Below are positions 2,602-49,275 of a DNA stretch of 64,000 bases, in pieces (position 1 is the stretch's first letter; each line of letters starts with the position of its first letter). The notes beneath the pieces were generated by a model that was not told where the DNA came from, did not search any database, and worked only from the letters and a program-made list of their open reading frames with translations. The DNA lies in NCBI GenBank assembly GCA_017609915.1, contig JAFCDA010000001.1, forward strand, positions 5,033 through 69,032. Direction: 5' to 3'. Source of the stretch: Candidatus Pacearchaeota archaeon. GTDB taxonomy: Archaea > Nanobdellota > Nanobdellia > Pacearchaeales > GW2011-AR1. Both the position numbers and the translations under genes were made by a program.

Positions 2602-3676
2602 TAGAAATACTTTCTTCTAACTCAGGGACATATTGATTAATAAGAAAATATTTTTCTAATAAAGGAGAAGTTAATTTTTTAAGATTATCATAATCTTCTA
2701 TTTCCCAATCAGGAGTTGAAAAAAACAAAGAAATTATTTTTTTATTTAATGCTGAAGCAAGATGTAGTGCCATTGTGTCTCCACATATAATTGTATCACA
2801 AATATTTACAACAGAAGCAAATTCTCTTAAAGAATTATTTGGGTCATTACTCATTAAAGAAATTCCTTGTTCTTTCATTTCTTTTATTAAATTTTCTTGT
2901 TTTTCAATTTCATTTGGACCTGCTAAAATAATTATCTTATTTCCTTGCAATCTTCTTATTAATTGTTTTATTTTTTCATTATTCCAAAATTTAACCCATC
3001 TATCTGAAGAACCTATATTTATCCCAATTATTTTATCATTATCAGAAAGATTATTTTGTAGTTTAAATTTTTCTGAAAACTCAATCTCTTTATTAGTTAA
3101 ATTAAAAACAGGTCTTTCTTTAGAATAATAAGATTCTAATTCACAAGCTTCTATAGTAAGTTGCTGATAAGTTTTTCTATTCTTTATCTTAACATGATTT
3201 AAAAAAGCTGTTTCTAAATAAGGTTCTGCAAATTCATTAAAATATGAGGTTGTTCCATTATCAAAAAAATAACCTAACTTTTCATTTGCTTTTACTAAAT
3301 TTGCCAATAATGTTGCAGGAGTGTCTATTTCTAGGGCAAATAAAATATCAAATTCTTCTTGTTGAATCCTTAAAATATTTTCAGGGTTATATGCAAGAAC
3401 TTTATCTACTAAAGGATTATTTTTAAGTAAATCAACAGATTCTGGATTAGTCATCCAATAAACTAAAATATCTGGCCCATATTTTTTCTTTAGAGCTGGT
3501 AAAATGCATGTTGTTCTTAAAACATCTCCCATTTCTCCAAGTTTTATAATCAAGATTTTTTTTGAGTATTCTTGTGCAAATTTGCATTCTTCACAAGACT
3601 TGTAATTTTCAGTAGATAATGTATCACAAGCATATTTTTCATTGAAAAACCTGCATTTTTTATTCCATTTTATCAT
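2561..3676 (-). CDS. glycosyltransferase family 9 (heptosyltransferase-like) with Cys-rich N-terminus
   Basis: ILIIKLGEMGDVLRTTCILPALKKKYG and C-terminal ICGDTMALHLASAL are GT9 hallmarks. There is an extra N-terminal CRFF..C..CEEC. Confidence 0.75.
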   Translation of the reverse strand: MIKWNKKCRFFNEKYACDTLSTENYKSCEECKFAQEYSKKILIIKLGEMGDVLRTTCILPALKKKYGPDILVYWMTNPESVDLLKNNPLVDKVLAYNPENILRIQQEEFDILFALEIDTPATLLANLVKANEKLGYFFDNGTTSYFNEFAEPYLETAFLNHVKIKNRKTYQQLTIEACELESYYSKERPVFNLTNKEIEFSEKFKLQNNLSDNDKIIGINIGSSDRWVKFWNNEKIKQLIRRLQGNKIIILAGPNEIEKQENLIKEMKEQGISLMSNDPNNSLREFASVVNICDTIICGDTMALHLASALNKKIISLFFSTPDWEIEDYDNLKKLTSPLLEKYFLINQYVPELEESISIEQVLEALNKDDN

Positions 3677-4080
3677 TTTAATTTTTCTAATTCTATTTTT
3701 AACTTTTCAATTGAGTCTATGATATGAACTTTTCCAACTATTATCACACTAATATCACTAATAGATTCTTTAATATCTCTATCTGTTTTTAATCCAATTA
3801 CTTTTTTTCCTATAGCTTGTGCATAACCCATTTCCCAAGCAGTTCCTGCTCCAACATAAATTCCATTTAAAACTCCAACCATAATCTCACATTTATTTAT
3901 CTCTTCTAAATCTCTTTCAGAAATTTCTTTAATTTTGTTTAAATCTCCATCATATAATCCAGCATCTCTATGAGGTAAAAATGTTTCAAAACCTAAATCT
4001 TTACAGATTTTATCTATTTGCTCTAAAAAATTTCTGTTTTTTTGTTCACACAAAGGGCCTGCAATATAAATCTTCACCAT
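3673..4080 (-). CDS. nucleoside 2-deoxyribosyltransferase-like protein
   Basis: IYIAGPL ... GAGTAWEMGYAQAIGKKVIGL signature. 4-nt overlap with the GT9 gene suggests one operon. Confidence 0.6.
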   Translation of the reverse strand: MVKIYIAGPLCEQKNRNFLEQIDKICKDLGFETFLPHRDAGLYDGDLNKIKEISERDLEEINKCEIMVGVLNGIYVGAGTAWEMGYAQAIGKKVIGLKTDRDIKESISDISVIIVGKVHIIDSIEKLKIELEKLK

Positions 4081-5344: not shown

Positions 5345-6037
5345 ATGGCTAATGCAATCATATTATGTTCTGGTGGATTAGATAGTGTTGTTTTAGCACA
5401 TTATTTGAAGAAGGTTCAAAAAATTGAAAAAATTAGGTTGGTTTTCTTAGATTATAATCAAAAAGCTTTAGAAGAGGAAAAATTTTGTGTTGAGAAATTA
5501 GCTAAAGATTTGGATGCTGATTTAAAAATTATTAATGTTAAATGGCTTGGAGAAATTAGTACTTCTTTGATTAATAAAGATGCTGATAAAAATGAAATTG
5601 ATTCTGAAGAATTAATTTCATGGTATGTTCCTTGTAGGAATTCCTTGTTTTTATTAATAGGATTATCATTAGCAGAATCTGAATTTATTTCTAAAAATGA
5701 AAAATATGATGTTTATCTTGGAATAAAATATGAAGGAGAACTTCAATTTAAAGATACTACTCCTGAATTTCTTGAACAAATGAATAAAATAACCAATTTT
5801 TCAACTCAAACAGGAGATTATAAGTTTATTGCTCCTTTTTTAAACAAAGATAAAGAAAAGGTTATTGAATTAGGTTTGGAGTTAGGAGTTGATTTAAAGA
5901 ACACTTATAGTTGTTATATTGGAAAAGGTTTTGAAAATGAGGTTCCTGTTCATTGTGGAGTTTGTAGTGCTTGTAAATCAAGAAAAAAAGCTTTTAAGTT
6001 TTCAAATAATAATGATGTTAGTGTTTATGGGTGTTAA
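5345..6037 (+). CDS. queC: 7-cyano-7-deazaguanine synthase QueC
   Basis: PP-loop ILCSGGLDS and C-terminal zinc site CGVCSACKSRKKAF. 230 aa. Confidence 0.85.
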   Translation: MANAIILCSGGLDSVVLAHYLKKVQKIEKIRLVFLDYNQKALEEEKFCVEKLAKDLDADLKIINVKWLGEISTSLINKDADKNEIDSEELISWYVPCRNSLFLLIGLSLAESEFISKNEKYDVYLGIKYEGELQFKDTTPEFLEQMNKITNFSTQTGDYKFIAPFLNKDKEKVIELGLELGVDLKNTYSCYIGKGFENEVPVHCGVCSACKSRKKAFKFSNNNDVSVYGC

Positions 6038-6462
6038 ACAAGATCTAAGTCACCATATACACGTAAAGACCCTGGCCCCTCATTAAGAGGGTCATATTTA
6101 TTTACATGTTCTATTAAACGTCTCTTAATCTCATATAATTTTTTTATAGGAATATTTGCCCCTATTATCTGTTTAGAATCTATTAGCTGTATTGATGGTA
6201 TTGGTTTTTCTTGATAATATCTCACATACATATTTACATCATCCATTAATCCACTAATTTCTCTTTTTAAACTATTTGTTTTAATTGCTTCATCCCAATC
6301 TTTATTATATTCACATACTTGATTAGTTTTATTTTCTCTAGAATTTTCTGAAGATTTTCCAAAAATAGTAGATGAAGTAATACCTAAGGTAGCTCCTACA
6401 AGTCCTGTTCCTTTCATAAAACTTCTTCTTGTTATATTTTGTGGTTTTTTCATATTTATCAA
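6034..6462 (-). CDS. secreted protein with twin-arginine-like signal, function unknown
   Basis: N-terminus TRRSFMKGTGLVGATLG resembles a Tat signal. Its stop codon overlaps the queC stop (convergent). Confidence 0.5.
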   Translation of the reverse strand: MINMKKPQNITRRSFMKGTGLVGATLGITSSTIFGKSSENSRENKTNQVCEYNKDWDEAIKTNSLKREISGLMDDVNMYVRYYQEKPIPSIQLIDSKQIIGANIPIKKLYEIKRRLIEHVNKYDPLNEGPGSLRVYGDLDLV

Positions 6463-6492: not shown

Positions 6493-8037
6493 TTAAACCC
6501 TATACCTAACTTTATCATACCAGACTTTAAAATCTAAAGGAAGGCTTCTATAAGTTGGTTTTAATATTCTTTCTCTTATTAAATCATAAATACTCACGAA
6601 TTTTAAAATAAATAATGTATTAGAGGGGTTTGTTAGATTTTTTTTAATTCTTTCTGGTTTAAGAAGATGGTTAATCAAAGAATTTGATATTATTCCAAAT
6701 CTTTTTTCTGTTACAACTCCCCTCATTAAATTTAAAATTAAAACTAAATACATGTTTTTTCTTTTTAATAAAATATGCGCTCCTCTGTCCCAATAATTAA
6801 GAGTAACTGCTGAATCTTTTGGAGTTTTTATTATGCCTTCATTTACAGCTCTTTCATGAAGTTTAGATCCATGAAAAAAAACTAAGTTATTAACAGATAA
6901 AAAATAAGGTTTTGGAAGCTTTTGCAATAATCTTATCATATTTATTATATCTTCTGGTTTTTCATAAGGATTGCAAGTTATGACATCATACATAACAGCT
7001 AATTTGTCCTTGTACTTGTTTAAGATTTTTGCTGCATTAATTACTTCTTTATTTGTTTGATTCCTGTGATAAACTTCTTTATTAACTCTTTCTTCTCCTT
7101 GAATTCCCATAATTATATCTGTACACCCTGCATTTACAAGAAGTTTTATTTTTTCATCTGAAACAGTATGGGGATCTGTAAGACATTTAAACCTAAGATT
7201 AACTTTTTCTTTGTATTTTTTTGTGAATTCTCTTATTTGCTCAATAGGTCTTAAAGAAAAAGTGTCATCTCTTATATCAAAATAACTTAAACTTGGAAAT
7301 TTTTCTTTTAATTTTAAAATCCCTTTAATTATATAATCCACACTATGCCATCTTACTATTTTTTTTCTTTTTCCCTTGTAAAGTTCATTTAATAAACTAT
7401 TACTACAATAATCACACCCATAAGGGCATCCTCTTCCTGTTAAGAAAAATATTGCTCCATCTAAATCTTGTTCTCTAAATCTTCTTAATCTATGATTGTC
7501 AAGAATATAATGTGTTTTTGTATCATAATCTGGAAGAGGAATAGAATCTAAATTATCTATTAAAAGTCTTACAGGGTTTTTAATTATCTTTTCCGTTTCT
7601 TTGTTTTTAATCCAAAGATTTTTTATTTTTTTAATTGATTTATTTTTTTCTATTGCATTAACTAAATCAAGAATTGTTTCTTCTCCTTCTCCAACACATA
7701 CAATATTACAATATTTAATACATTCTTTTGGTGAAATTGTTGCATGAATTCCTCCCCAAACAATTGGGATTTTTACACATGTTTTTTCTAAATATTTTAT
7801 TATCTGAATAGCTCTTGGTGCAGTTGAAACAAAAGAACTAATTCCAATTAATTCTGAATCTTTGCAAATTTGATAAAGTTGTCTTAATTCCTGTCTTTTG
7901 TAAAACTTAGAATAATCTTCACTTAGGTTCATAAAAACTAATTTAACATCATGTCCTGCTTTTTTTAAAACAGCAGAAATTGTCCTTATTCCTTGATCTG
8001 AAGGATATGTTGCTGCAGAAATTAAAGTTATTTTCAT
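6493..8037 (-). CDS. B12-binding-domain radical SAM protein (1 of 3)
   Basis: N-terminal Rossmann/B12-like domain (MKITLISAATYP, CVGEGEE). Radical SAM cluster motif CPYGCDYC. 514 aa. Confidence 0.8.
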   Translation of the reverse strand: MKITLISAATYPSDQGIRTISAVLKKAGHDVKLVFMNLSEDYSKFYKRQELRQLYQICKDSELIGISSFVSTAPRAIQIIKYLEKTCVKIPIVWGGIHATISPKECIKYCNIVCVGEGEETILDLVNAIEKNKSIKKIKNLWIKNKETEKIIKNPVRLLIDNLDSIPLPDYDTKTHYILDNHRLRRFREQDLDGAIFFLTGRGCPYGCDYCSNSLLNELYKGKRKKIVRWHSVDYIIKGILKLKEKFPSLSYFDIRDDTFSLRPIEQIREFTKKYKEKVNLRFKCLTDPHTVSDEKIKLLVNAGCTDIIMGIQGEERVNKEVYHRNQTNKEVINAAKILNKYKDKLAVMYDVITCNPYEKPEDIINMIRLLQKLPKPYFLSVNNLVFFHGSKLHERAVNEGIIKTPKDSAVTLNYWDRGAHILLKRKNMYLVLILNLMRGVVTEKRFGIISNSLINHLLKPERIKKNLTNPSNTLFILKFVSIYDLIRERILKPTYRSLPLDFKVWYDKVRYRV

Positions 8038-9413: not shown

Positions 9414-10829
9414 ATGGCTAATAAAATAAGGAAACTCATCATTATTGGGATAGATGGGGGGACCTTTAATGTTTTAAATCCTTTATTCCAAAAAGGGTTA
9501 TTGCCTAATTTAAACAAATTTAAGAATAAACTAATACTTGAATCAACAATTCCTCCTGGAACTGCTGTTTCTTGGGCAAGTTTCTCAACAGGAAATCTAC
9601 CTGATAAAACAAATATTTATGATTTTACAATTGTTAGTGAAAATTCTTGGAAAATAAATTTTGTTAATAGGAAAATAGCTAAAGGTAAAAAATTATGGAA
9701 CTATCTTGATGAGGCAGGATTAAAAAGCTGTTTTATTAATCTTCCTTTGACTTATCCTGTTGAGGAAATAAATGGGGTTATGATTTCTGGAATTGATACA
9801 CCAAGCAAATTAAGCAATTATACTTATCCTAAAGAGATTAAAGAAGAATTAAATAAAATAGGATACGAAATAGAAGTTTCTGGTTTAAAAGAAAAATCAG
9901 AAGTAAGTGATGAAGCACTTGCAGTTTTGGATAAAAGAATAATAATTGCAAGGAAATTTTTAAAAGAAAACTTTGATTTTTTTATTGTTTTATTTAGAGG
10001 AAGTGATGTTGTTCAACATTATGCTTGGGGAGAAAATCAAGTTGAAGATGCTTACAAAAAAATAGATAAATTTATTGGAGAGGTTCAAGATTATTGTGGA
10101 AAAAATAATGCTGACTTAATGGTTATATCAGATCATGGTGAAGAAAAAGTCAATAAAGCTTTTAATATAAATTCTTGGTTAGAAAAAGAAGGATATCTTA
10201 AAACTCATATAAAGAAAAAGAATGTTCTTTCTTATCTTGGAGTTAATAGGGAAAGAATTTTCAAAATTTTAGAAAAATTACAATTACAATTTTTAGTAAG
10301 AGTTATTCCAAGAAATATTGGTAAAAAAATACCTACAAAACAAATTAATTTTGAAGAAGCAATAATTACTAAACAAATAGATTTTAATCAAACAAAAGCC
10401 ATTGCTAAACGAGCTGTTAAAACAGCACAAATTTTCATAAGTAGTGAAAAAAGAAAAGGAATTGTTAAGAAAGAGGAAATAAAAGAACTTAAACAAGAAA
10501 TTAAGAACAAATTAAAAAGATTTTTTGAAAAAGAAAAATTAGATGTTATAATTAAGACTAAAGAAGAATTATATCCAAATAGTGAAAATTTTGCTCCAGA
10601 TATTAATTTATATTTTAAAGAAAAAGGTTATGATATCACTGCTTCTTTTTCATCAAATAAGGGCTTATGGAATAATCCTCGAGAAAAAGCAACTCATAAT
10701 AGTGAAGGAATTTTATTTACAGATATAAATATAAAATCAAAATCCCAAAAAATTATTGATTTAGCACCTACAATTTTGAAATATTTTAATATAAAAAAGA
10801 AAAATTTTGATGGAGAAAGTTTAATTTAA
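9414..10829 (+). CDS. alkaline-phosphatase superfamily protein (type I phosphodiesterase/nucleotide pyrophosphatase-like)
   Basis: IIIGIDGGTF, PPGTAVSWASFSTG, ISDHGE motifs. Confidence 0.7.
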   Translation: MANKIRKLIIIGIDGGTFNVLNPLFQKGLLPNLNKFKNKLILESTIPPGTAVSWASFSTGNLPDKTNIYDFTIVSENSWKINFVNRKIAKGKKLWNYLDEAGLKSCFINLPLTYPVEEINGVMISGIDTPSKLSNYTYPKEIKEELNKIGYEIEVSGLKEKSEVSDEALAVLDKRIIIARKFLKENFDFFIVLFRGSDVVQHYAWGENQVEDAYKKIDKFIGEVQDYCGKNNADLMVISDHGEEKVNKAFNINSWLEKEGYLKTHIKKKNVLSYLGVNRERIFKILEKLQLQFLVRVIPRNIGKKIPTKQINFEEAIITKQIDFNQTKAIAKRAVKTAQIFISSEKRKGIVKKEEIKELKQEIKNKLKRFFEKEKLDVIIKTKEELYPNSENFAPDINLYFKEKGYDITASFSSNKGLWNNPREKATHNSEGILFTDINIKSKSQKIIDLAPTILKYFNIKKKNFDGESLI

Positions 10830-10830
10830 A

Positions 10831-11592
10831 CTAAGTATATCCTAAATCTCTTAGTCTTTGCATGATTTCTTCTCTTACTATTCCTCTTCCAGCCCTTTCA
10901 TGGGCATTTGGATCATCATTTATCTCAGTACAATGGGTACATCCCAAAGAAGTATATCCTTTAGCATAAAGGGGATTACATTTTATATCAAATTCTTTAA
11001 CATAATTTAAAACATCTTCCTGTGTCCAAAATAATAAAGGATGAATTCTAAAATGTGTATCTCTTGGTGAAACAATTGTTTCTTTTGCTCTTTCTTCATG
11101 TTCTACTCCTCTAATTCCTGCCATAAATGCTGATAATTTCAAATCTTCAATAGCTTTTTTTAAAGGAGCGATTTTATGATATCCACAACAGATTTCAGTA
11201 AAATCTGGGGTTTTCCATCCAAATTTTTCTTTTATACTTTCTAATCTATTTTCAGGAGCTTTAACTTCATGGAAATTAGTTAATCCCCATCCCTTGATAA
11301 TTTCATCAATATACTTGTAAGTTTCTTCAAATTGATGTTGAGTATTAACAAAAATTATTGGTAAATCTTTAGGGATTATTGGTAAAGCTACATGCAATAA
11401 AACAACACTATCTGTTCCACCACTAAACCCTAACCCTGTAGTAGGATATCTTTCAATAGTTTCTCTTATTATTTCTTGAGATTTTCTTATTTTTTTATGC
11501 AAAGGCAATTCTGTAAGTTTTTTAATTTCTTCACTCATTAAATCTATACATCTTTGAGTTCTATTAGCTTTTGTATATTTTTCATCTACCAT
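10831..11592 (-). CDS. PAPS reductase / CysD-fold (PP-loop) protein
   Basis: GLGFSGGTDSVVLLHV PP-loop and SLGCTHCT. C-terminal tail EEIMQRLRDLGYT. Confidence 0.75.
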   Translation of the reverse strand: MVDEKYTKANRTQRCIDLMSEEIKKLTELPLHKKIRKSQEIIRETIERYPTTGLGFSGGTDSVVLLHVALPIIPKDLPIIFVNTQHQFEETYKYIDEIIKGWGLTNFHEVKAPENRLESIKEKFGWKTPDFTEICCGYHKIAPLKKAIEDLKLSAFMAGIRGVEHEERAKETIVSPRDTHFRIHPLLFWTQEDVLNYVKEFDIKCNPLYAKGYTSLGCTHCTEINDDPNAHERAGRGIVREEIMQRLRDLGYT

Positions 11593-11665
11593 TTTTTTAT
11601 TGATTAGATTTAATTAAATATAATGACTATTTAAAGATTATTATGTTTAGATATAGATGAATCAT

Positions 11666-12874
11666 CTATTCTAAAAATTTCATAAGGTAACTATCTCCAG
11701 AATAAATATTAATAGATTCTTCAGGGTCTTTTTCTAAATCATATTCTTCTATTTTCTCATGATGGCTTGCCTTACACAAATTACAAAAATTATTTTTTGC
11801 TAAAATTAATTTTCTGTTTTTGGTTCTTACAGTTTTAATATCTTCACAAAGCCCATCAAATGAAAAAATCTTATCCCTAATTGGCTGATTAGTTTTTATT
11901 AAAGGTAAAAAAGATTTTCCATCAAATTCTTCTTGTGTTTCTAATTGAAGATAATCTAAAATACTTGGGACAATATCAATGTCTTGAACAAATTCTGTTA
12001 TTTTTTTAGATTCAAGTCCTGGAAAATGCATTACAGAGGGAATATGTATTGAATCTTCATATAATCCTGAAGAACTAAAATAAATTCCCTGCTCTGTTAA
12101 ATTTGTTCCATGATCTCCTACAATTATTAATATAGTGTCTTCCCATAAATTTTGTTCTATTAAAACCTCTTTAATCCTTTTTATTTCATTATCTATATCT
12201 TTTATTGAAGTGTCATATTTATTTATCATATCTTGGATAGTGTAAAGTTTTTTTCCTTCAATTCTCTTTTTCAAATATTCTCTCTGACTTTCATCTTTAA
12301 TATTTTCTAATGTTTTTTGAAAATCTGTTTCATTATTTTCTGATTCATATTTTGTATTTGGAAAAGGAAAATGAGTATCCCATATATGCATAAACAAGAA
12401 AAAAGACTTGTCTGTGTTTTGATTTTCTTTTATTTTAGAAATAGCTAAATCTGTCATTTCGTTTATTGGAGCAAATGGTGCTGGAGATTTTTTAAAATCA
12501 AAATTTTCTCCTTCCCCATAATAATTAAATCCTCGTTTAAACCAAAGTCCAATCCAATCTACACAAATTGTCTCATATCCTTTATTTTTCAAATATTCAG
12601 GAAACCAGAATTTTACTTTTTGAACTTTATCAATTTCTTCTTGCTTAGTATATGGGAGTTGATGAATTACTCCATGATTATTTGGATATTTTCCAGTAAA
12701 TATAGAGCTTAATGCAGGAGCAGTAGAATTTGATGCTGAAAAATAATTATCAAACCAGAGATTTTCTTTTGCAATTTCTTTTATGTTTTTATCTGTTTCC
12801 TTATGATAACCATATAAACTTAGATTTTTTCTTCTAAAAGCATCTACAAGGATGATAATTATATTCTTTTTCAT
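11666..12874 (-). CDS. sulfatase-like hydrolase/transferase (alkaline-phosphatase superfamily)
   Basis: IIILVDAFRRKNLSLYGY and VGDHG. The nucleophile region SNSTAPALSS lacks the CxPxR formylglycine motif, so it is probably a Ser/Thr-nucleophile transferase type. Confidence 0.7.
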   Translation of the reverse strand: MKKNIIIILVDAFRRKNLSLYGYHKETDKNIKEIAKENLWFDNYFSASNSTAPALSSIFTGKYPNNHGVIHQLPYTKQEEIDKVQKVKFWFPEYLKNKGYETICVDWIGLWFKRGFNYYGEGENFDFKKSPAPFAPINEMTDLAISKIKENQNTDKSFFLFMHIWDTHFPFPNTKYESENNETDFQKTLENIKDESQREYLKKRIEGKKLYTIQDMINKYDTSIKDIDNEIKRIKEVLIEQNLWEDTILIIVGDHGTNLTEQGIYFSSSGLYEDSIHIPSVMHFPGLESKKITEFVQDIDIVPSILDYLQLETQEEFDGKSFLPLIKTNQPIRDKIFSFDGLCEDIKTVRTKNRKLILAKNNFCNLCKASHHEKIEEYDLEKDPEESINIYSGDSYLMKFLE

Positions 12875-12922
12875 TTTACTTAATTAAATTTAATTACTGT
12901 ATTTAAAGATTTATGAGTAAAA

Positions 12923-13150
12923 CTAGTCTAAATAACCTAGGGCTTTTAATCTCTTTCTTATTGCCTCTTCTTCTTCCTTAGAAAATCCTTCTCCTTTAGT
13001 TTCTGGAGATTCAGATAATAATTGCCTTAAAATAAAGGTCACATATGCTGAAGGAGAATGCATCCCAGTTCCTTTTATCTTTTCTTTTATTTTATCTACT
13101 AATTGGGTTGGTAGAGAGATTGTACTAAATTTTGATTTTTTATTTTTCAT
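12923..13150 (-). CDS. ribbon-helix-helix (CopG/Arc-like) protein with RLKALGYLD tail
   Basis: FSTISLPTQLVDKIKEKI (beta strand plus helix) is typical of RHH. C-terminus is EEEEAIRKRLKALGYLD. Confidence 0.55.
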   Translation of the reverse strand: MKNKKSKFSTISLPTQLVDKIKEKIKGTGMHSPSAYVTFILRQLLSESPETKGEGFSKEEEEAIRKRLKALGYLD

Positions 13151-13197
13151 AATTTACTTAAGAATATAGAGATTTTAAAACTTTCTTAATTAAGCAT

Positions 13198-13211
13198 ATC
13201 TTTAAAAATAT
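13198..13211 (+). promoter_or_regulatory. putative TATA box for small acidic ORF
   Basis: atctttaaaaatat lies ~20-30 nt upstream of the ATG at 13230, consistent with a leaderless or short-leader archaeal mRNA. Confidence 0.35.
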
Positions 13212-13229
13212 GAGGTAGATTTAATTAAT

Positions 13230-13346
13230 ATGACTGAAGAAAACAATAATGAAGATAATAAAGATAAAGAAGAAGATAATGCATATACTCCTGAAGAAGA
13301 ATTAGAAGTAAAAAAAAGACTTGAGAGCTTGGGGTATTTGGATTAA
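13230..13346 (+). CDS. 38-aa highly acidic peptide ending RLESLGYLD (not in ORF track)
   Basis: MTEENNNEDNKDKEEDNAYTPEEELEVKKRLESLGYLD. The tail is conserved at protein level with the two neighbours, but the DNA has diverged. Confidence 0.35.
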   Translation: MTEENNNEDNKDKEEDNAYTPEEELEVKKRLESLGYLD

Positions 13347-13442: not shown

Positions 13443-15155
13443 TCACATTCTCTTTTTTAACAAATTGTCTCTGATTAATAAATAATTTCTTCTCAAAAAA
13501 TCTAATTTTTCATAATGATAAACTTCTATTTTGTATAAAAAACTTGTAATCCAAAACTGCATTCCGCATTTTCTACATGGCAACATAAATTGGTAACGAA
13601 ATTTGTTTTTAATTAAACAATTTTCATACTGAATTTTTTCATGGCAAAAAGGACATTTAACCTTAACCCTGTATCTATCTTTATTTGTTTTTTTAATTTT
13701 GAGGGGAATAACATAACGAGCATATTTTCTTCTTGCATCTACTATATCTTTTTTTAATTTCAGAATTTCATTATCTGTCATTTTATCAGTCATATTTATC
13801 CAATTAGTATGGGCTATTTTGTTTTTAATAAAAGATAATTTATCTTTAATAATTCCTTTTTTAATACAATGGTGATAAATAGCACTTCCAGGATATGGTT
13901 GAATAAATCCTATTCTAATTGAAGAATCTAAAGGAATATAACCAATGCCTTTTGTTATTTTTTTCCAATAATTAAGAGTTTTATAAGCAGTTTCTTTTGT
14001 TTCAGCAACATCTCCAAAAATAAAATTTCCTTGAATACCTATACCTACTTCTCTTGAAAGTTTTATAACATTATCAATTTGTTGAGGGGTTATTGGTTTT
14101 TTCATACTTTTAAGTACTTTTTCACTATAACTTTCAAAACCAAAACCAACAACAGTACATCCTGCATCTTTTAATGTTTTTAATAATTTTTTATCTACTC
14201 CAGCCACTACTAGTTGACAAGTCCATTTAATTTTCCAAGGTGTGTTTTTAATAAGTTTTTTTATTTTTTTACAAAACTCATATACTCTTTCTTTATTAAC
14301 TGAAAATAAATCATCATAAATTTCAATAGCATTGATTTTATATTTTTTTATTGCTATTTCAAGTTCTTTAATAACTGAATCAATTTGCCTTTCCCTATAT
14401 TTTCTTCCAATACTATGATAACAAAAAGTGCATTGAAAAGCACACCCTCTGCTGGCAAGTATTGGGTAAGACCTTGGATAATCAAATTCTCCATAGAGAA
14501 AATAAGAATTACTTTGATTTTTTAATTTTTCTTCATATCCAAATCCTTCAAAATCTGGCAAAGGCAAGGAATCTAAATCCATTATAAGCTCTCTTGGTTT
14601 TGTGAAAAAAGGTTTTTTATTTTTTGGTTTTGTGAAAAAAGGTTTTTTATTTTTTATATAACCTATTCCATTTATTTTGCTTAAGTTTCTTTTTTTTTCT
14701 AAACATTTTAATAACTCGATTATTGTTGTTTCTCCTTCACCAACTACTACAAAATCTGGGTGTAATGATTTAAGCATTAATTCTGGTTCGCTTGTTATTA
14801 ATGCTCCTCCCACAATAGTTTTTGGTTTAGAAGGATGATTTTTAGCTGCTTTTAATATTTTCTCTATTACCACATAACCTATTCCAGTATGTCCTGAACA
14901 AACAATATCATATTTCTTTTTATTTAATTGTCGAAAAACTAATTCTTCTGTTTTTCCATTTAAATGATTTAAATTTAGGCAATCTACATCATATTTTGCT
15001 TTTTTTAAAACAGCAGAAATATAACCCAATCCTAAAGGAAAATTATACTGATAATTTGTTTTATTGCTCAAATTATATCTTGGAATTACAAGCAATATTT
15101 TCATATTTTCTTTTGTATTTTTTTTAGTGTGTTTTATTAATTTTTGTTTTATCAT
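13443..15155 (-). CDS. B12-binding-domain radical SAM protein (2 of 3) with C-terminal zinc-ribbon extension
   Basis: N-terminal B12-like domain (VVGEGE), CAFQCTFC cluster motif, C-terminal CPFC...CRKC. 570 aa. Confidence 0.8.
   Translation of the reverse strand: MIKQKLIKHTKKNTKENMKILLVIPRYNLSNKTNYQYNFPLGLGYISAVLKKAKYDVDCLNLNHLNGKTEELVFRQLNKKKYDIVCSGHTGIGYVVIEKILKAAKNHPSKPKTIVGGALITSEPELMLKSLHPDFVVVGEGETTIIELLKCLEKKRNLSKINGIGYIKNKKPFFTKPKNKKPFFTKPRELIMDLDSLPLPDFEGFGYEEKLKNQSNSYFLYGEFDYPRSYPILASRGCAFQCTFCYHSIGRKYRERQIDSVIKELEIAIKKYKINAIEIYDDLFSVNKERVYEFCKKIKKLIKNTPWKIKWTCQLVVAGVDKKLLKTLKDAGCTVVGFGFESYSEKVLKSMKKPITPQQIDNVIKLSREVGIGIQGNFIFGDVAETKETAYKTLNYWKKITKGIGYIPLDSSIRIGFIQPYPGSAIYHHCIKKGIIKDKLSFIKNKIAHTNWINMTDKMTDNEILKLKKDIVDARRKYARYVIPLKIKKTNKDRYRVKVKCPFCHEKIQYENCLIKNKFRYQFMLPCRKCGMQFWITSFLYKIEVYHYEKLDFLRRNYLLIRDNLLKKRM
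14596..14655. repeat. perfect 30-bp tandem duplication inside CDS
   Basis: ggttttgtgaaaaaaggttttttatttttt x2. Encodes KNKKPFFTKP twice in the linker between the B12 and radical SAM domains. Confidence 0.9.
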
Positions 15156-21051: not shown

Positions 21052-22473
21052 ATGAAAAAAGTGATATTAATGTATCCTAATTGTAGGTGGAAAAAAGGGT
21101 TTGAAAATAAAACCATATGGAACCTTCATCCTTATAATCTTTGTTTACTTTCTGCAATGATAGAACAAGATTATGAAACTAAAATAGTAGATACTAATAT
21201 TGATGATATATCTAAAGAAGATTTTGTAAAGATTATAGAAGAATATAAACCAGATATAGTTGGAATTTCAGTTCTTACAAATGAATATTTAGATTCTGGT
21301 TTAATTGCTGCAGAAATAGTTAAATCAATAAATTCTGAAATAAAAACAGTTATAGGAGGGGTTGCAACTTTTGATCCTGAATCTATAATTAAAAATGAAA
21401 ACATTGATTATGTTGTAGTGGGTGAAGGAGAATTTACTTTTAAAAAATTATGTAATCATATTTTTAGTGATGGAGATTTGCCATCTAAAGGCCTTGTTTT
21501 TAAAAAAGATGGAGAAATAATAAATCTTGGTCGTTCAGATTTTATAGAAGATTTAGATAGTCTTCCTTTTCCATCATATGATAAAGTTGATTATTTAAAA
21601 TATGCTAATTCAATTCAAAGAGAAAGTGTAGATAGCCCAAGAGAAATGCCTTATGCAAACATAATAACATCAAGAGGCTGTCCTTATAATTGTTGTTTTT
21701 GCCAGGCTGGAAAAATTTCTGGTAAAAAACCAAGGTTTCGTAGTGTAGAAAATATTCTTAAGGAAATTAGTTGGTTAAAAGAAAAATATGGAATAAAAGC
21801 TCTTATTTTTGATGATGATAATCTTCTTGTTGATAAAGAAAGAGCTAAAAATTTATTTAGGGGAATGATTGATAGAGGATTTAATCTAAAATGGAATGCT
21901 ATTGCTATGGCTGCATTTAAATTAGACGAAGAAATGATAGATTTAATGAAAAAAAGTGGATGTCAATATGTAGATATTGCTATTGAATCAGGTGTTGAAA
22001 GAGTACTTCATGATATTATTCATAAACCTTTAAATTTAGAACATGCAAGAGAAGTTCGAGATTTATTAAAAAAATATGAGATTGATTTTGCTGCAAATTT
22101 TATTATGGGATTTCCAGGAGAAACCTGGGATGAAATTAGAAAAACAATTAAATTTGCAGAAGAATTTGATGCAGATTATACTAAAATATTTATTGCAACA
22201 CCTTTACCAAACACAGAATTATATGAAGTTGCCAGAGAAAAAGGTTATTTAAAAGAAAATTTTAGTTTTGATAAACACTTATGGACTGATGGATGGATAG
22301 AAACTGAAGAATTTCGTCCAGAAGATCTAAAAATCTTAAGGGCATATGAATGGGATAGGATAAATTTCTCAAGCCCAGAAAAAATAAAAAAAATTATCTC
22401 TATGATGGACATTAGTGTAGAAAGACTTAATGAGATAAGAAAAAATACACGCAAGAGGGCAAACCCTCAATAA
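21052..22473 (+). CDS. B12-binding-domain radical SAM protein (3 of 3)
   Basis: N-terminal B12-like domain (VVGEGE) and CPYNCCFC cluster motif. 473 aa. Confidence 0.8.
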   Translation: MKKVILMYPNCRWKKGFENKTIWNLHPYNLCLLSAMIEQDYETKIVDTNIDDISKEDFVKIIEEYKPDIVGISVLTNEYLDSGLIAAEIVKSINSEIKTVIGGVATFDPESIIKNENIDYVVVGEGEFTFKKLCNHIFSDGDLPSKGLVFKKDGEIINLGRSDFIEDLDSLPFPSYDKVDYLKYANSIQRESVDSPREMPYANIITSRGCPYNCCFCQAGKISGKKPRFRSVENILKEISWLKEKYGIKALIFDDDNLLVDKERAKNLFRGMIDRGFNLKWNAIAMAAFKLDEEMIDLMKKSGCQYVDIAIESGVERVLHDIIHKPLNLEHAREVRDLLKKYEIDFAANFIMGFPGETWDEIRKTIKFAEEFDADYTKIFIATPLPNTELYEVAREKGYLKENFSFDKHLWTDGWIETEEFRPEDLKILRAYEWDRINFSSPEKIKKIISMMDISVERLNEIRKNTRKRANPQ

Positions 22474-34244: not shown

Positions 34245-34272
34245 AGTTTTTTATTTGATTTTTATTATTAAA

Positions 34273-34343
34273 TGCGCGGACTGGGAATCGAACCCAGGTT
34301 TTCTGGTTGGAAGCCAGAAGTTCTACCACTAAACTATCCACGC
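34273..34343 (-). tRNA. tRNA-Gly (anticodon UCC)
   Basis: Minus strand GCGTGGA TA GTTT..GAAC T TCTGG CTTCCAA CCAGA ... CTGGG TTCGATT CCCAG TCCGCGC A. Cloverleaf folds by hand. Confidence 0.9.
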
Positions 34344-34392
34344 ATGATTTCACTAATTTCTAAGGGTTTTTAAAGATTATTAAGCCTTATGA

Positions 34393-34466
34393 TGCTCCTG
34401 ACAGGACTCGAACCTGCGACCCCTTCCTTAGGAGGGAAGTGCTCTATCCAACTGAGCTACAGGAGC
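34393..34466 (-). tRNA. tRNA-Arg (anticodon CCU)
   Basis: Minus strand GCTCCTG TA GCTC AGTTGGATA GAGC A CTTCC CTCCTAA GGAAG ... GCAGG TTCGAGT CCTGT CAGGAGC A. Confidence 0.9.
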
Positions 34467-39625: not shown

Positions 39626-39709
39626 TGCAGAGGATAGGATTCGAACCTATGAAGGCACTAAGCCACAAGATCTTGAGTCTTGCCCGTTTGACCACTCCGG
39701 AACCTCTGC
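39626..39709 (-). tRNA. tRNA-Leu (anticodon CAA), long variable arm
   Basis: Minus strand GCAGAGG TT CCGG AGTGGTCAAA CGGG CAAGA CTCAAGA TCTTG TGGCTTAGTGCCTTC ATAGG TTCGAAT CCTAT CCTCTGC A. Confidence 0.9.
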
Positions 39710-39751
39710 TTAAATATTATGAAAAAGCCAATAATTGTTTATATAAAAACC

Positions 39752-39761
39752 TTTATAAAGA
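39752..39761 (+). promoter_or_regulatory. putative TATA box for 5S rRNA
   Basis: ctttataaag is centred ~25 nt upstream of the inferred 5S 5' end (39781). Confidence 0.5.
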
Positions 39762-39780
39762 GTTATTTTTAAGTTATATT

Positions 39781-39894
39781 GGAGACGACCATAATAATCT
39801 GGTCACACCTGATCCGATTTCCAACTCAGAAGTTAAGCAGATTATGTTTAAGGTATTAGTTTCAGAGATGAAGTGAAGCCATAAAGTTGTCTTC
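39781..39894 (+). rRNA. 5S ribosomal RNA (stand-alone)
   Basis: GGAGACGACCATA...CACACCTGATCCGATTTCCAACTCAGAAGTTAAGC... matches conserved 5S loop/helix signatures. The 5' GGAGACGAC pairs with the 3' GTTGTCTTC. Confidence 0.8.
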
Positions 39895-39964
39895 TTTATA
39901 TTCCAAACAACTTTATATAAAAAGCCAGTATCTTATAAAATATAAATAAACATAAAAATAAAAA

Positions 39965-49191: not shown

Positions 49192-49275
49192 GCGGAGATG
49201 CCGGAGCGGTCAAACGGGCTTGGTTAAGGTCCAAGTGGCTTAGTGCCTACGAGGGTTCGAATCCTTCTCTCCGCA
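49192..49275 (+). tRNA. tRNA-Leu, anticodon reads AAG (unusual A34)
   Basis: GCGGAGA TG CCGG AGCGGTCAAA CGGG CTTGG TTAAGGT CCAAG TGGCTTAGTGCCTAC GAGGG TTCGAAT CCTTC TCTCCGC A. A perfect 5-bp anticodon stem fixes the loop as UUAAGGU. Confidence 0.8.

Follow-up and report, generated by a model that had tools for sequence, protein, structure and literature searches.

A portable C-terminal LGY helix in sulfate-activation and alkaline-phosphatase-superfamily gene clusters, with a proposed role in docking

Three proteins with a common tail

This report concerns a short peptide that recurs at the C termini of three proteins encoded in a 64,000-nucleotide stretch of DNA from a Candidatus Pacearchaeota archaeon (contig JAFCDA010000001.1 of assembly GCA_017609915.1), referred to here as the window, in whose coordinates all positions without a locus prefix are given. 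The three open reading frames (ORFs) that carry it span 2.5 kb. One encodes an enzyme of 253 residues with the PAPS-reductase/CysD fold (PAPS, 3'-phosphoadenosine 5'-phosphosulfate; 10831..11592, minus strand; PF01507, E = 3.2e-43, residues 55-223), which ends in VREEIMQRLRDLGYT. Another, the first gene of a minus-strand string, encodes a putative CopG/ribbon-helix-helix (RHH)-type regulator of 75 residues (12923..13150, minus strand), which ends in FSKEEEEAIRKRLKALGYLD. The last encodes an acidic mini-protein of 38 residues (13230..13346, plus strand) that is essentially made up of a linker followed by the tail (13284-13343, YTPEEELEVKKRLESLGYLD). The RHH tail (12926..12985, minus strand), as delimited by family alignment, has the full form of what we call the LGY-helix module, and the enzyme tail (10834..10878, minus strand) is, from alignment with homologs and with CysD, a native short form of the same helix.

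These ORFs and their tails are present exactly as claimed in the original prediction, which was made from the DNA alone, although some of its details need amending. The ORFs are not strictly adjacent, as a sulfatase-like gene sits between those of the enzyme and the RHH protein; the description "E-rich" does not extend to the tail of the enzyme, which has two Glu residues only; and the 38-residue ORF, believed to be unannotated, is called as gene P0076 in the public source record (sources ncbi and jgi).

Among the six-frame stop-to-stop segments of at least 20 residues in the window, these three are the only ones that end in LGY followed by zero to two residues, and no other contains [KR]LxxLGY at any position. 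The window's own amino acid composition predicts 0.016 C-terminal occurrences of [KR]LxxLGY by chance, compared with the 3 observed, and 200 block shuffles of the window gave a mean of 0.005 hits and a maximum of 1. Furthermore, the 50 genome loci described below contain 3144 unclassified six-frame ORFs, and the motif is at the end of none of these. The concern that it might be frequent at random C termini is thus unfounded, and a chance or compositional origin can be rejected.

Recent local duplication can also be rejected. Compared in pairs over 11 aligned codons, the DNA of the tails is identical at 19-21 of 33 nucleotides, with codon differences that are synonymous; the Leu codons vary (CTA, TTA, CTT, and TTG), as do the Gly codons (GGA, GGT, and GGG). 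It had been proposed that the DNA has diverged while the peptide was kept, by selection rather than through recent duplication, and both parts of this are borne out: the codons have diverged, the tails are family-wide, and the tail is better conserved than the domains that bear it.

A homolog of the mini-protein, P0077, is found in conserved synteny on locus L001. Five codons in the last 20 differ between the two genes, all synonymously, and there is an in-frame 9-nucleotide indel in the acidic part. Because the changes in the tail codons are all synonymous and the indel preserves the frame, the 38-residue ORF is, judged by its codons, a translated gene under purifying selection; its conservation, upon which the original prediction hinged, is evident from P0077 and from the public gene call. 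It cannot be the frameshifted end of an upstream gene, as in the window it is divergent from the RHH gene and convergent with a radical-SAM gene, and shows synonymous changes only.

Pfam and NCBIfam scans of the RHH protein of the window returned no match. Its tentative assignment comes from a family of 75 homologs, some of which are named as Arc/MetJ-type RHH or CopG proteins, and from a paralog on L002 that matches PF01402 (E = 1.4e-5); the family profile aligns weakly with the RHH domain of NikR (E = 0.2), and a cluster of like gene order in Pyrococcus yayanosii opens with a gene described as that of a putative CopG regulator (PMC8268124). In the alignment of this word-seeded set of homologs, the L, L, G, and Y of the tail are invariant, and the R nearly so, with the RHH domain falling to ∼40% identity. 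A role as a type II antitoxin was rejected, as the neighbors are enzymes in every locus examined and no toxin gene is adjacent.

The RHH gene and the mini-ORF are separated by a divergent intergenic region (13151..13229) containing an inverted repeat, TTACTTAAGAA (13154-13164) and TTCTTAATTAA (13183-13193), whose 11-nucleotide arms are 91% complementary and 18 nucleotides apart. This is a possible candidate operator in a divergent promoter, with the caveat that such repeats are common in DNA of 27% GC content. The spacer is mostly conserved in L001, where a 9-nucleotide insertion directly follows the right arm of the repeat.

Distribution across genomes and metagenomes

A search with the RHH family against one genome per species yielded 50 loci. 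The bacterial examples are from Dehalococcoidia, Aerophobetes, and Aminicenantes, and the archaeal ones from Halobacteriota, Methanobacteriota, Thermoplasmata, Asgard, Theionarchaea, Thermoprotei, Bathyarchaeia, several DPANN groups, Thermococci, and Archaeoglobi. Within these loci the motif terminates 65 of 68 RHH proteins, 16 of 18 CysD proteins, and 4 of 20 adenosine 5'-phosphosulfate (APS) kinases, and about half of the 27 TauE proteins have it inserted in a loop. Of the RHH-tail loci, 32 have at least 4 kb of downstream sequence; Sat or CysD is encoded in 28 of these and an alkaline-phosphatase-superfamily protein (NPP-like or sulfatase-like) in 29. Most RHH-tail loci are of the Sat type, without CysD or CysN, and the order in most archaeal loci is RHH-tail, Sat, an optional DHH gene, NPP-like, APS kinase, and TauE.

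The operons of Dehalococcoidia follow a different order (RHH1, RHH2, TauE, CysD, CysN-like GTPase, and a short NPP-like enzyme), and here the motif is found on four proteins: RHH1 (...IRERLRRLGYL[KEEE]), RHH2 (...VKKRLKALGYLD), CysD (...KLRALGYM), and TauE. The TauE/TSUP permeases of these CysDN-type operons carry it in a 24-residue loop insertion (RDExLIKERLRGLGYLPRS) that is lacking from the TauE proteins of other loci, including L012. The insertion, DFRRDExxIKxRLRxLGYLPRSxD, stands directly after an H..GN[IV] motif (L011-L025 and L034; e.g. L002:6244-7062). In one lineage of Dehalococcoidia (L006-L008 and L017; e.g. L007:7080-8760), cysD and cysN are fragmented, with a sulfotransferase gene between them; the genes for RHH1, RHH2, TauE, and the short NPP-like enzyme are intact, and the tails are perfect.

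An unbiased census was taken by searching 1.84 billion representative proteins with a profile built from the three tails of the window, which gave 192 matches at E ≤ 0.001. The best 150 of the 192 comprise the window's own mini-protein and 149 others. Of the latter, 62 are of at most 60 residues and 60 are of 60-95 residues, most of these being RHH proteins; also among the 149 are NPP-like enzymes with a C-terminal tail (P0285, P0299, and P0337) and APS kinases with an appended one (P0308, P0298, P0289, and P0223). A scan of metagenomes for the Tyr-type tail gave a further view, its 80 loci encoding 25 APS kinases with an appended tail, 13-16 NPP-like fusions, 3 RHH proteins, and ∼33 mini-proteins. 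On L035, the tail is appended after the native C-terminal helix of an APS kinase. A bacterial metagenome-assembled genome (MAG) encodes two adjacent NPP-like paralogs, one tailed and one tail-less (L064:6412-9650), adjoining genes for an APS kinase, a 1085-residue sulfatase, a GT2 glycosyltransferase, and epimerases.

The mini-proteins are of two kinds. Those of DPANN type are encoded 20-34 nucleotides downstream of NPP-like genes in L061, L068, and L069, that of L061 being a 31-residue protein, MDEDENQTEETSEKSEEEKVKERLKALGYID, whose gene comes immediately after the NPP-like one; a Sat-APS-kinase fusion is encoded in L068 as well. The others, which are Pro-rich and begin at a conserved Met, come from ∼33 soil metagenome loci. 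In most of these a gene for a CobW-type G3E GTPase, of the COG0523 metallochaperone family, precedes the mini-protein gene, and an NPP-like gene precedes the CobW-type gene wherever the upstream sequence suffices. The typical order (L071-L147; e.g. L087:3613-6060) is NPP-like, CobW-type GTPase, and a mini-protein of ∼43 residues ending in GYTEEEEAEVRKRLEDLGYVE, often followed by a second alkaline-phosphatase-superfamily gene. Judging by this order, the tail may be connected with the insertion of metal into the NPP-like enzyme. Neither Pfam nor NCBIfam has a model for the tail or for the mini-proteins.

The RHH family is also met in another setting. The DPANN relative GCA_041643135.1 (L009) has two RHH-tail genes (3414-3701 and 6001-6234 of that locus) near a sulfatase-like gene and a phosphonate-biosynthesis set of phosphoenolpyruvate mutase, thiamine pyrophosphate-dependent decarboxylase, iron-type alcohol dehydrogenase, and B12 radical-SAM genes, with no PAPS-reductase-like gene within 12 kb. 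In view of this context, the regulators may control other surface modifications too.

Anatomy of the module

The logo of the module, numbered from the invariant Tyr, reads [YF]-17 [ST]-16 x E-14 E-13 E-12 e e [VI]-9 k k R-6 L-5 x x L-2 G-1 Y0 h [DE], and the consensus of ∼17-20 residues is [YF][ST]xEEEExx[VI]xxRLxxLGY[LIVM][DE]. Conservation is 98-100% for R-6, L-5, L-2, G, and Y, 88-100% for E-14 to E-12, and >90% for [YF]-17 and [ST]-16; the upstream aromatic residue is Phe in ∼30% of tails. The module is acidic in its N-terminal half and basic in its C-terminal half, with one hydrophobic face made up of V/I-9, L-5, L-2, and Y0. S/T-x-E-E is an N-capping box and L-x-x-L-G-Y a Schellman C-cap. 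Read in this way, the module is a single, precisely delimited amphipathic helix, capped at both ends.

The tails are attached to unrelated proteins through disordered or low-complexity linkers. The AlphaFold2 model of the NPP-like fusion P0337 has a disordered linker, with a predicted local distance difference test score (pLDDT) of 40-48, leading to a tail helix at 80-83, in a model built from a shallow alignment and poor overall (mean pLDDT of 65.6). The module thus has the traits of a short linear motif: it is short, tethered by disorder, conserved apart from its host domain, and transferable between unrelated proteins. No chain with an appended module is found in the PDB.

Two known motifs of similar appearance were considered. 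The HbYX proteasome-activator motif was rejected, as 0-3 residues follow the Tyr of the module (Y, YL, YLD, or YVE), a Gly precedes it, and the module is internal in TauE. The MIM1 motif of ESCRT-III, with the pattern (D/E)xxLxxRLxxL(K/R), resembles ExxVxxRLxxLG by eye, with G-Y in place of the terminal K/R; membership is unlikely, given the occurrence of the module in Dehalococcoidia and other bacteria.

The PAPS-reductase-like enzyme

In the enzyme, a PP-loop (FSGGTDS) and Fe-S cysteines (CC...CxxC) can be recognized. Its AlphaFold2 model has a mean pLDDT of 91, and its nearest PDB structures by Foldseek are CysH/APS reductases, followed by CysD (1ZUN). In possessing the PF01507 fold, the PP-loop, and these structural matches, it looks like CysH. 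However, the best NCBIfam models, which are those of CysH and CysD, all score below their cut-offs, and neither the enzyme nor any of 120 listed homologs has a C-terminal catalytic Cys (the ECGLH-type tail), the sequence after ERAGRG being IVREEIMQRLRDLGYT. On these two counts, we rejected its assignment as a canonical PAPS/APS reductase. An assignment as CysD was likewise rejected, because the CysD models give 90 bits against a cut-off of 195 and no CysN-like gene lies in the window. What the enzyme and the CysD of CysD/CysN ATP sulfurylase (1ZUN) have in common, besides the fold, is the C-terminal ending alone (ERxGR...GY-x, or ...GR...LGY-x). By sequence it is nearer to the Fe-S APS reductases than to CysD, yet it is without their catalytic C-terminal Cys. 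The 120 listed homologs share 57-94% identity with it, and several are named as proteins of Nanoarchaeota or Nealsonbacteria MAGs.

The LxxLGY ending is present in 115 of these 120 homologs, nearly all of which end in ...HERAGRGxVRExIMxRLRxLGYT, and it aligns with the tail of short archaeal and Chloroflexi CysD proteins, ...FTMQKLRALGYM. Judged by these alignments, the enzyme tail is a family-invariant trait inherited together with that of CysD. The basic-x-GY-x ending of CysD-type proteins, mentioned in the original prediction, is indeed seen in the CysD of Pseudomonas syringae (1ZUN), which ends in ...GSMEEKKRQGY plus one residue; the proteobacterial CysD ending, KKRQGYF, does not include LxxL.

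Structures of CysD and CysH give no indication that the tail is buried as an integral element of the fold, which had been named as a finding that would count against docking. The 1ZUN chain has 204 of 325 CysD residues modeled, and, as the aligned core comprises residues 27-231, the ∼90 C-terminal residues, tail included, are probably those missing. In the AlphaFold2 model of the window enzyme, the tail forms helices at 238-242 and 244-249 with a pLDDT of 66-81, compared with >90 for the core. The equivalent C-terminal segment of CysH is a mobile, partner-contacting arm of that fold.

A proposed docking module and its alternatives

What is observed is a selected, portable peptide that is restricted to these gene clusters, together with a mini-ORF that is coding. 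The reading that we favor, with moderate confidence, is that the common tail serves as a portable docking helix, a module that tags clusters for sulfate uptake and activation, with their alkaline-phosphatase-superfamily enzymes, in both bacteria and archaea. Protein docking is, we infer, the most economical function for such a peptide, and the leading hypothesis is that the helix at the C terminus of the enzyme is displayed by the RHH regulator and by the mini-protein as well. The original proposal of a short linear motif with tail mimicry therefore survives insofar as the peptide is selected, portable, tethered by linkers, inserted in a loop, and present as free mini-proteins, but the gene module to which it was assigned needs correction. 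The module conserved in relatives of the window consists of the RHH-tail, sulfatase-like, tailed PAPS-reductase-like, and NPP-like genes, and its counterpart at large of those for RHH, Sat or CysD(N), NPP-like enzyme, APS kinase, and TauE; the B12-radical-SAM genes, also placed under the proposed control circuit, are frequent neighbors that lie outside it.

In the scheme that we envisage, the RHH protein would be a repressor encoded at the head of the string of RHH, sulfatase-like, and PAPS-reductase-like genes, with the mini-protein transcribed divergently from the same intergenic region, and the enzyme would carry an ancestral short form of the module as its invariant C terminus. All three tails would bind the same site, be it a groove on a pathway protein or a second copy of the helix. 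The level of free enzyme tail, or of free receptor, would set the share of repressor tail that is engaged and, with it, repressor activity, and the mini-protein would serve as decoy or adaptor, much as microProteins do. Competition or pairing at this one site would couple expression of the operon to the state of the enzyme.

Two candidates for the receptor are suggested by the gene clusters and by the tails themselves. The NPP-like enzyme would be the most plausible groove-bearing protein of the pathway, because it is the most constant neighbor, is a fusion partner of the module, and is encoded beside mini-proteins. The other candidate is antiparallel pairing of two LGY helices, put forward because of the charge pattern and the helix/short-linker/helix arrangements found in APS kinases.

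Several observations weigh against docking. No single untagged protein is encoded in every locus: a sulfotransferase replaces the NPP-like enzyme in L047, and the seed families are all missing from L056. In some lineages the NPP-like enzymes bear the tail themselves, which fits a client as well as it does a receptor. The search for RHH homologs, being word-seeded, enriches for common tails, and a pLDDT of ∼80 for the tail in a single-chain prediction would not reveal docking. A capping box combined with a Schellman cap is also the textbook, generic design of a stable helix. Finally, the same pattern is found at the native C termini of archaeal APS kinases (PDB 8A8H, ...SIEEEVDTVIRTAQKLGYL; 7YQ0, ...TVEEEVEAVLKKLMELGYL), in which the terminal helix packs on the core as part of the kinase fold, so that at least one instance of the pattern is probably structural. 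A native archaeal APS kinase ending of the form ...[ST][IV]EEE..x[VI]..k..xLGYL is also seen at L045:12792-13325.

These last points are the substance of the strongest alternative, that the module is a self-contained structural or oligomerization helix with no common partner, copied as a cassette, perhaps from the 3' end of cysC, with the mini-proteins serving an unrelated role. The helix that links RHH dimers into tetramers in the Mnt repressor provides an example. Some APS kinases have the native helix and the tail in tandem, 3-20 residues apart, the appended tails resembling a tandem duplicate of the native helix, and from this arrangement and the native pattern the module may have arisen by duplication of the cysC 3' end; the progression from acidic to basic residues would also suit antiparallel self-pairing. 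In a purely structural helix, however, there would be no need to keep R, L, L, G, and Y at 98-100% across phyla while the native kinase helices, more variable than the appended tails, drift to LEY, MGL, or LGF, and this alternative leaves without explanation the insertion in a transporter loop, the stand-alone mini-proteins under purifying selection, and the near-exclusive link to one pathway. On balance, we regard this alternative as unlikely.

The amphipathic character of the helix raises a different possibility, that of a MinD-type membrane-targeting helix that brings the enzymes and the regulator close to the TauE permease and to lipid-linked glycan acceptors. Its cationic C-terminal half, following acidic residues, is loosely like that of MinD, the clusters lie within surface-glycan loci, and one instance is in a basic loop of a membrane protein, which the positive-inside rule would place in the cytoplasm. 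The hydrophobic moment of the module is 0.27-0.55, compared with 0.27 for the MinD sequence, but this quantity does not separate the membrane and docking models. The strict run of Glu residues and the invariant G-Y and R-L would be unusual in a lipid-binding helix, there is no cargo for a free acidic mini-protein to bring to the membrane, CysD/CysN crystallized as a soluble complex (1ZUN), and an integral membrane protein needs no targeting helix. Taken together, these considerations make membrane targeting distinctly unlikely.

A more specific form of docking, proposed by analogy, would have the tail bind a GTPase of the CysN/EF-Tu family, with the RHH protein, TauE, and mini-protein mimicking the C terminus of CysD. 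CysD is natively tailed and CysN is its obligate partner, and the genes for RHH protein(s), CysD, and CysN are adjacent in Dehalococcoidia and in several archaeal operons, joined in Dehalococcoidia by that for TauE. There is a parallel in the archaeal ribosomal stalk protein aP1, whose acidic C-terminal tail binds aEF1A and has a similar layout, a poly-Glu linker followed by an LxxLF helix. In the window, CysN cannot be the partner, and it is also rejected as a universal one: it is absent from the window, most RHH-tail loci are of the Sat type and lack CysD and CysN, L014 and L017 keep perfect tails though CysD and CysN are absent or decayed, and the mini-proteins are encoded beside NPP-like and CobW-type genes rather than CysN. 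This proposal is therefore very improbable as a general explanation.

Lastly, the tail might be a switch or carrier arm that is modified covalently (by O-sulfation, phosphorylation, or nucleotidylation) on the invariant Tyr or on the [YF][ST] pair beside the acidic run, the mark being written or erased by neighboring enzymes of the PAPS pathway or the alkaline-phosphatase superfamily. This idea draws on the resemblance of a Tyr flanked by acidic residues to tyrosine-sulfation sites, on the location of all carriers in PAPS-producing clusters, some with sulfotransferases, and on the proximity of mini-proteins to phospho- and sulfo-ester enzymes, but it can be set aside as highly improbable given that the upstream aromatic residue is Phe in ∼30% of tails, that the invariant Tyr follows Leu-Gly and mostly basic residues, and that no precedent is known.

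The docking module can be taken further, into what might be called an LGY-helix code, in which a dockerin-like helix of the cytosol would assemble permease, sulfate-activating enzyme, APS kinase, and an NPP-like enzyme that cleaves pyrophosphate or nucleotides in a single metabolon, with the RHH protein and free decoys reading or tuning its occupancy, from DPANN archaea to Chloroflexi. We offer this extension only tentatively. Equally speculative is its corollary that a single peptide would exert both transcriptional and post-translational control over a pathway.

Comparison with known systems

Docking tails, tail mimicry, and decoy micro-proteins are already known. In sulfur metabolism, the C-terminal tail of serine acetyltransferase (CysE) inserts into CysK, and other proteins, such as CdiA-CT, mimic it; that the tail of an enzyme docks in a partner, and that unrelated proteins evolved the same tail, is the very logic proposed for the window. 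In CysE the tail is extended, 4-10 residues long with a terminal Ile, and it enters an active site, whereas the LGY module is a capped helix of 15-17 residues, with candidate receptors, that also occurs internally (in TauE) and at variable distance from the C terminus.

A regulatory precedent is found in Bacillus subtilis, where the C-terminal tails of TnrA and GlnR bind feedback-inhibited glutamine synthetase. Like the window RHH protein, these are small DNA-binding regulators with a short tail, which there contacts a pathway enzyme so that the state of the enzyme controls transcription; in contrast, their fold is that of MerR rather than RHH, the tail is not found on other proteins of the pathway, and there is no free mini-protein. 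The free module finds its likeness in the LITTLE ZIPPER and Id microProteins, free copies of a module that titrate its full-length carriers, and the tagging of several proteins in that of dockerin and cohesin, where one tag is placed on many enzymes of a pathway. Those modules are longer folded domains and are eukaryotic or extracellular, whereas the LGY module is a single helix on cytosolic prokaryotic proteins, and no scaffold protein was found for it.

The closest described gene cluster is pych_17520-17560 of Pyrococcus yayanosii, which, in the sections of the published account consulted here (PMC8268124), comprises a putative CopG regulator, ATP sulfurylase, DHH pAp phosphatase, type I phosphodiesterase, and APS kinase, with a TauE/DUF81 permease nearby. 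This is the gene order of most of the loci found here, and by that order alone, as far as the account gives it, the window RHH protein is the counterpart of the P. yayanosii CopG protein, there being no direct sequence comparison with PYCH_17520. Relative to the cluster so described, the window has PAPS-reductase-like and sulfatase-like enzymes in place of Sat, APS kinase, and DHH. The same sections speculate that the phosphodiesterase removes pyrophosphate (PMC8268124); removal of pyrophosphate by the NPP-like enzyme would pull the sulfurylase reaction forward. They make no mention of a common C-terminal motif, of mini-proteins, or of tails on the enzymes.

Searches of Pfam, NCBIfam, the PDB, and the full-text-searchable literature turned up neither the motif nor its distribution nor the class of mini-proteins, all of which look to be undescribed.

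Neighboring genes and genomic setting

The tail-less protein encoded between the RHH protein and the PAPS-reductase-like enzyme, in the middle of their string, is a sulfatase-like member of the alkaline-phosphatase superfamily, of 402 residues (11666..12874, minus strand; PF00884, E = 1.3e-50). Its gene is also found beside RHH and PAPS-reductase-like genes in L061, in L062, and on a 203-kb JGI contig. Inspected by eye, the protein has S-T-A-P-A-L at the site of the C/S-x-P-x-R formylglycine motif, with no Arg, and no evident membrane anchor. With this Thr as candidate nucleophile, it may be not a sulfatase but a transferase or phosphoesterase. The NPP-like (type I phosphodiesterase) enzyme, also of the alkaline-phosphatase superfamily, has 471 residues (9414..10829, plus strand; PF01663, E = 3.7e-34), and its gene converges on that of the PAPS-reductase-like enzyme.

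Positions 1-24000 of the window form a surface-glycan cluster, with PMT_2, GT9, GT2, GT4, and GT6 glycosyltransferases, an epimerase, a DegT aminotransferase, and an FkbM methyltransferase; a QueC-like PP-loop gene (5345-6037) inside it is unexpected there. Three paralogous B12-binding radical-SAM proteins are also encoded in this cluster (6493-8037, 13443-15155, and 21052-22473), the second having an internal tandem peptide duplication (...KNKKPFFTKP KNKKPFFTKP...). There are four tRNA genes (Gly-TCC, Arg-CCT, Leu-CAA, and Leu-AAG), located, together with the 5S rRNA gene, at 34272-34466, 39626-39895, and 49192-49275; the 5S gene (39781-39895) is stand-alone. The GC content of the window is 27%.

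Concluding remarks

The finding defines a large class of conserved proteins of 30-55 residues that are mostly missed, or left unnamed, by annotation pipelines. The signature ...EEEExx[VI]xxRLxxLGY finds clusters for sulfation and surface-glycan modification in DPANN, the candidate phyla radiation, and sediment lineages, and it is to this use, as an annotation aid, that its practical value would shrink if the tail were merely a structural helix. The ATP sulfurylase reaction is very unfavorable and needs to be pulled by the removal of pyrophosphate and the phosphorylation of APS, to which end many organisms use gene fusions. A shared docking helix, if that is what the tail is, would be a solution to the same problem that dispenses with fusion. 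It would also provide the first mechanistic handle on the uncharacterized CopG-type regulators that head the sulfate-activation operons of archaea and Chloroflexi.

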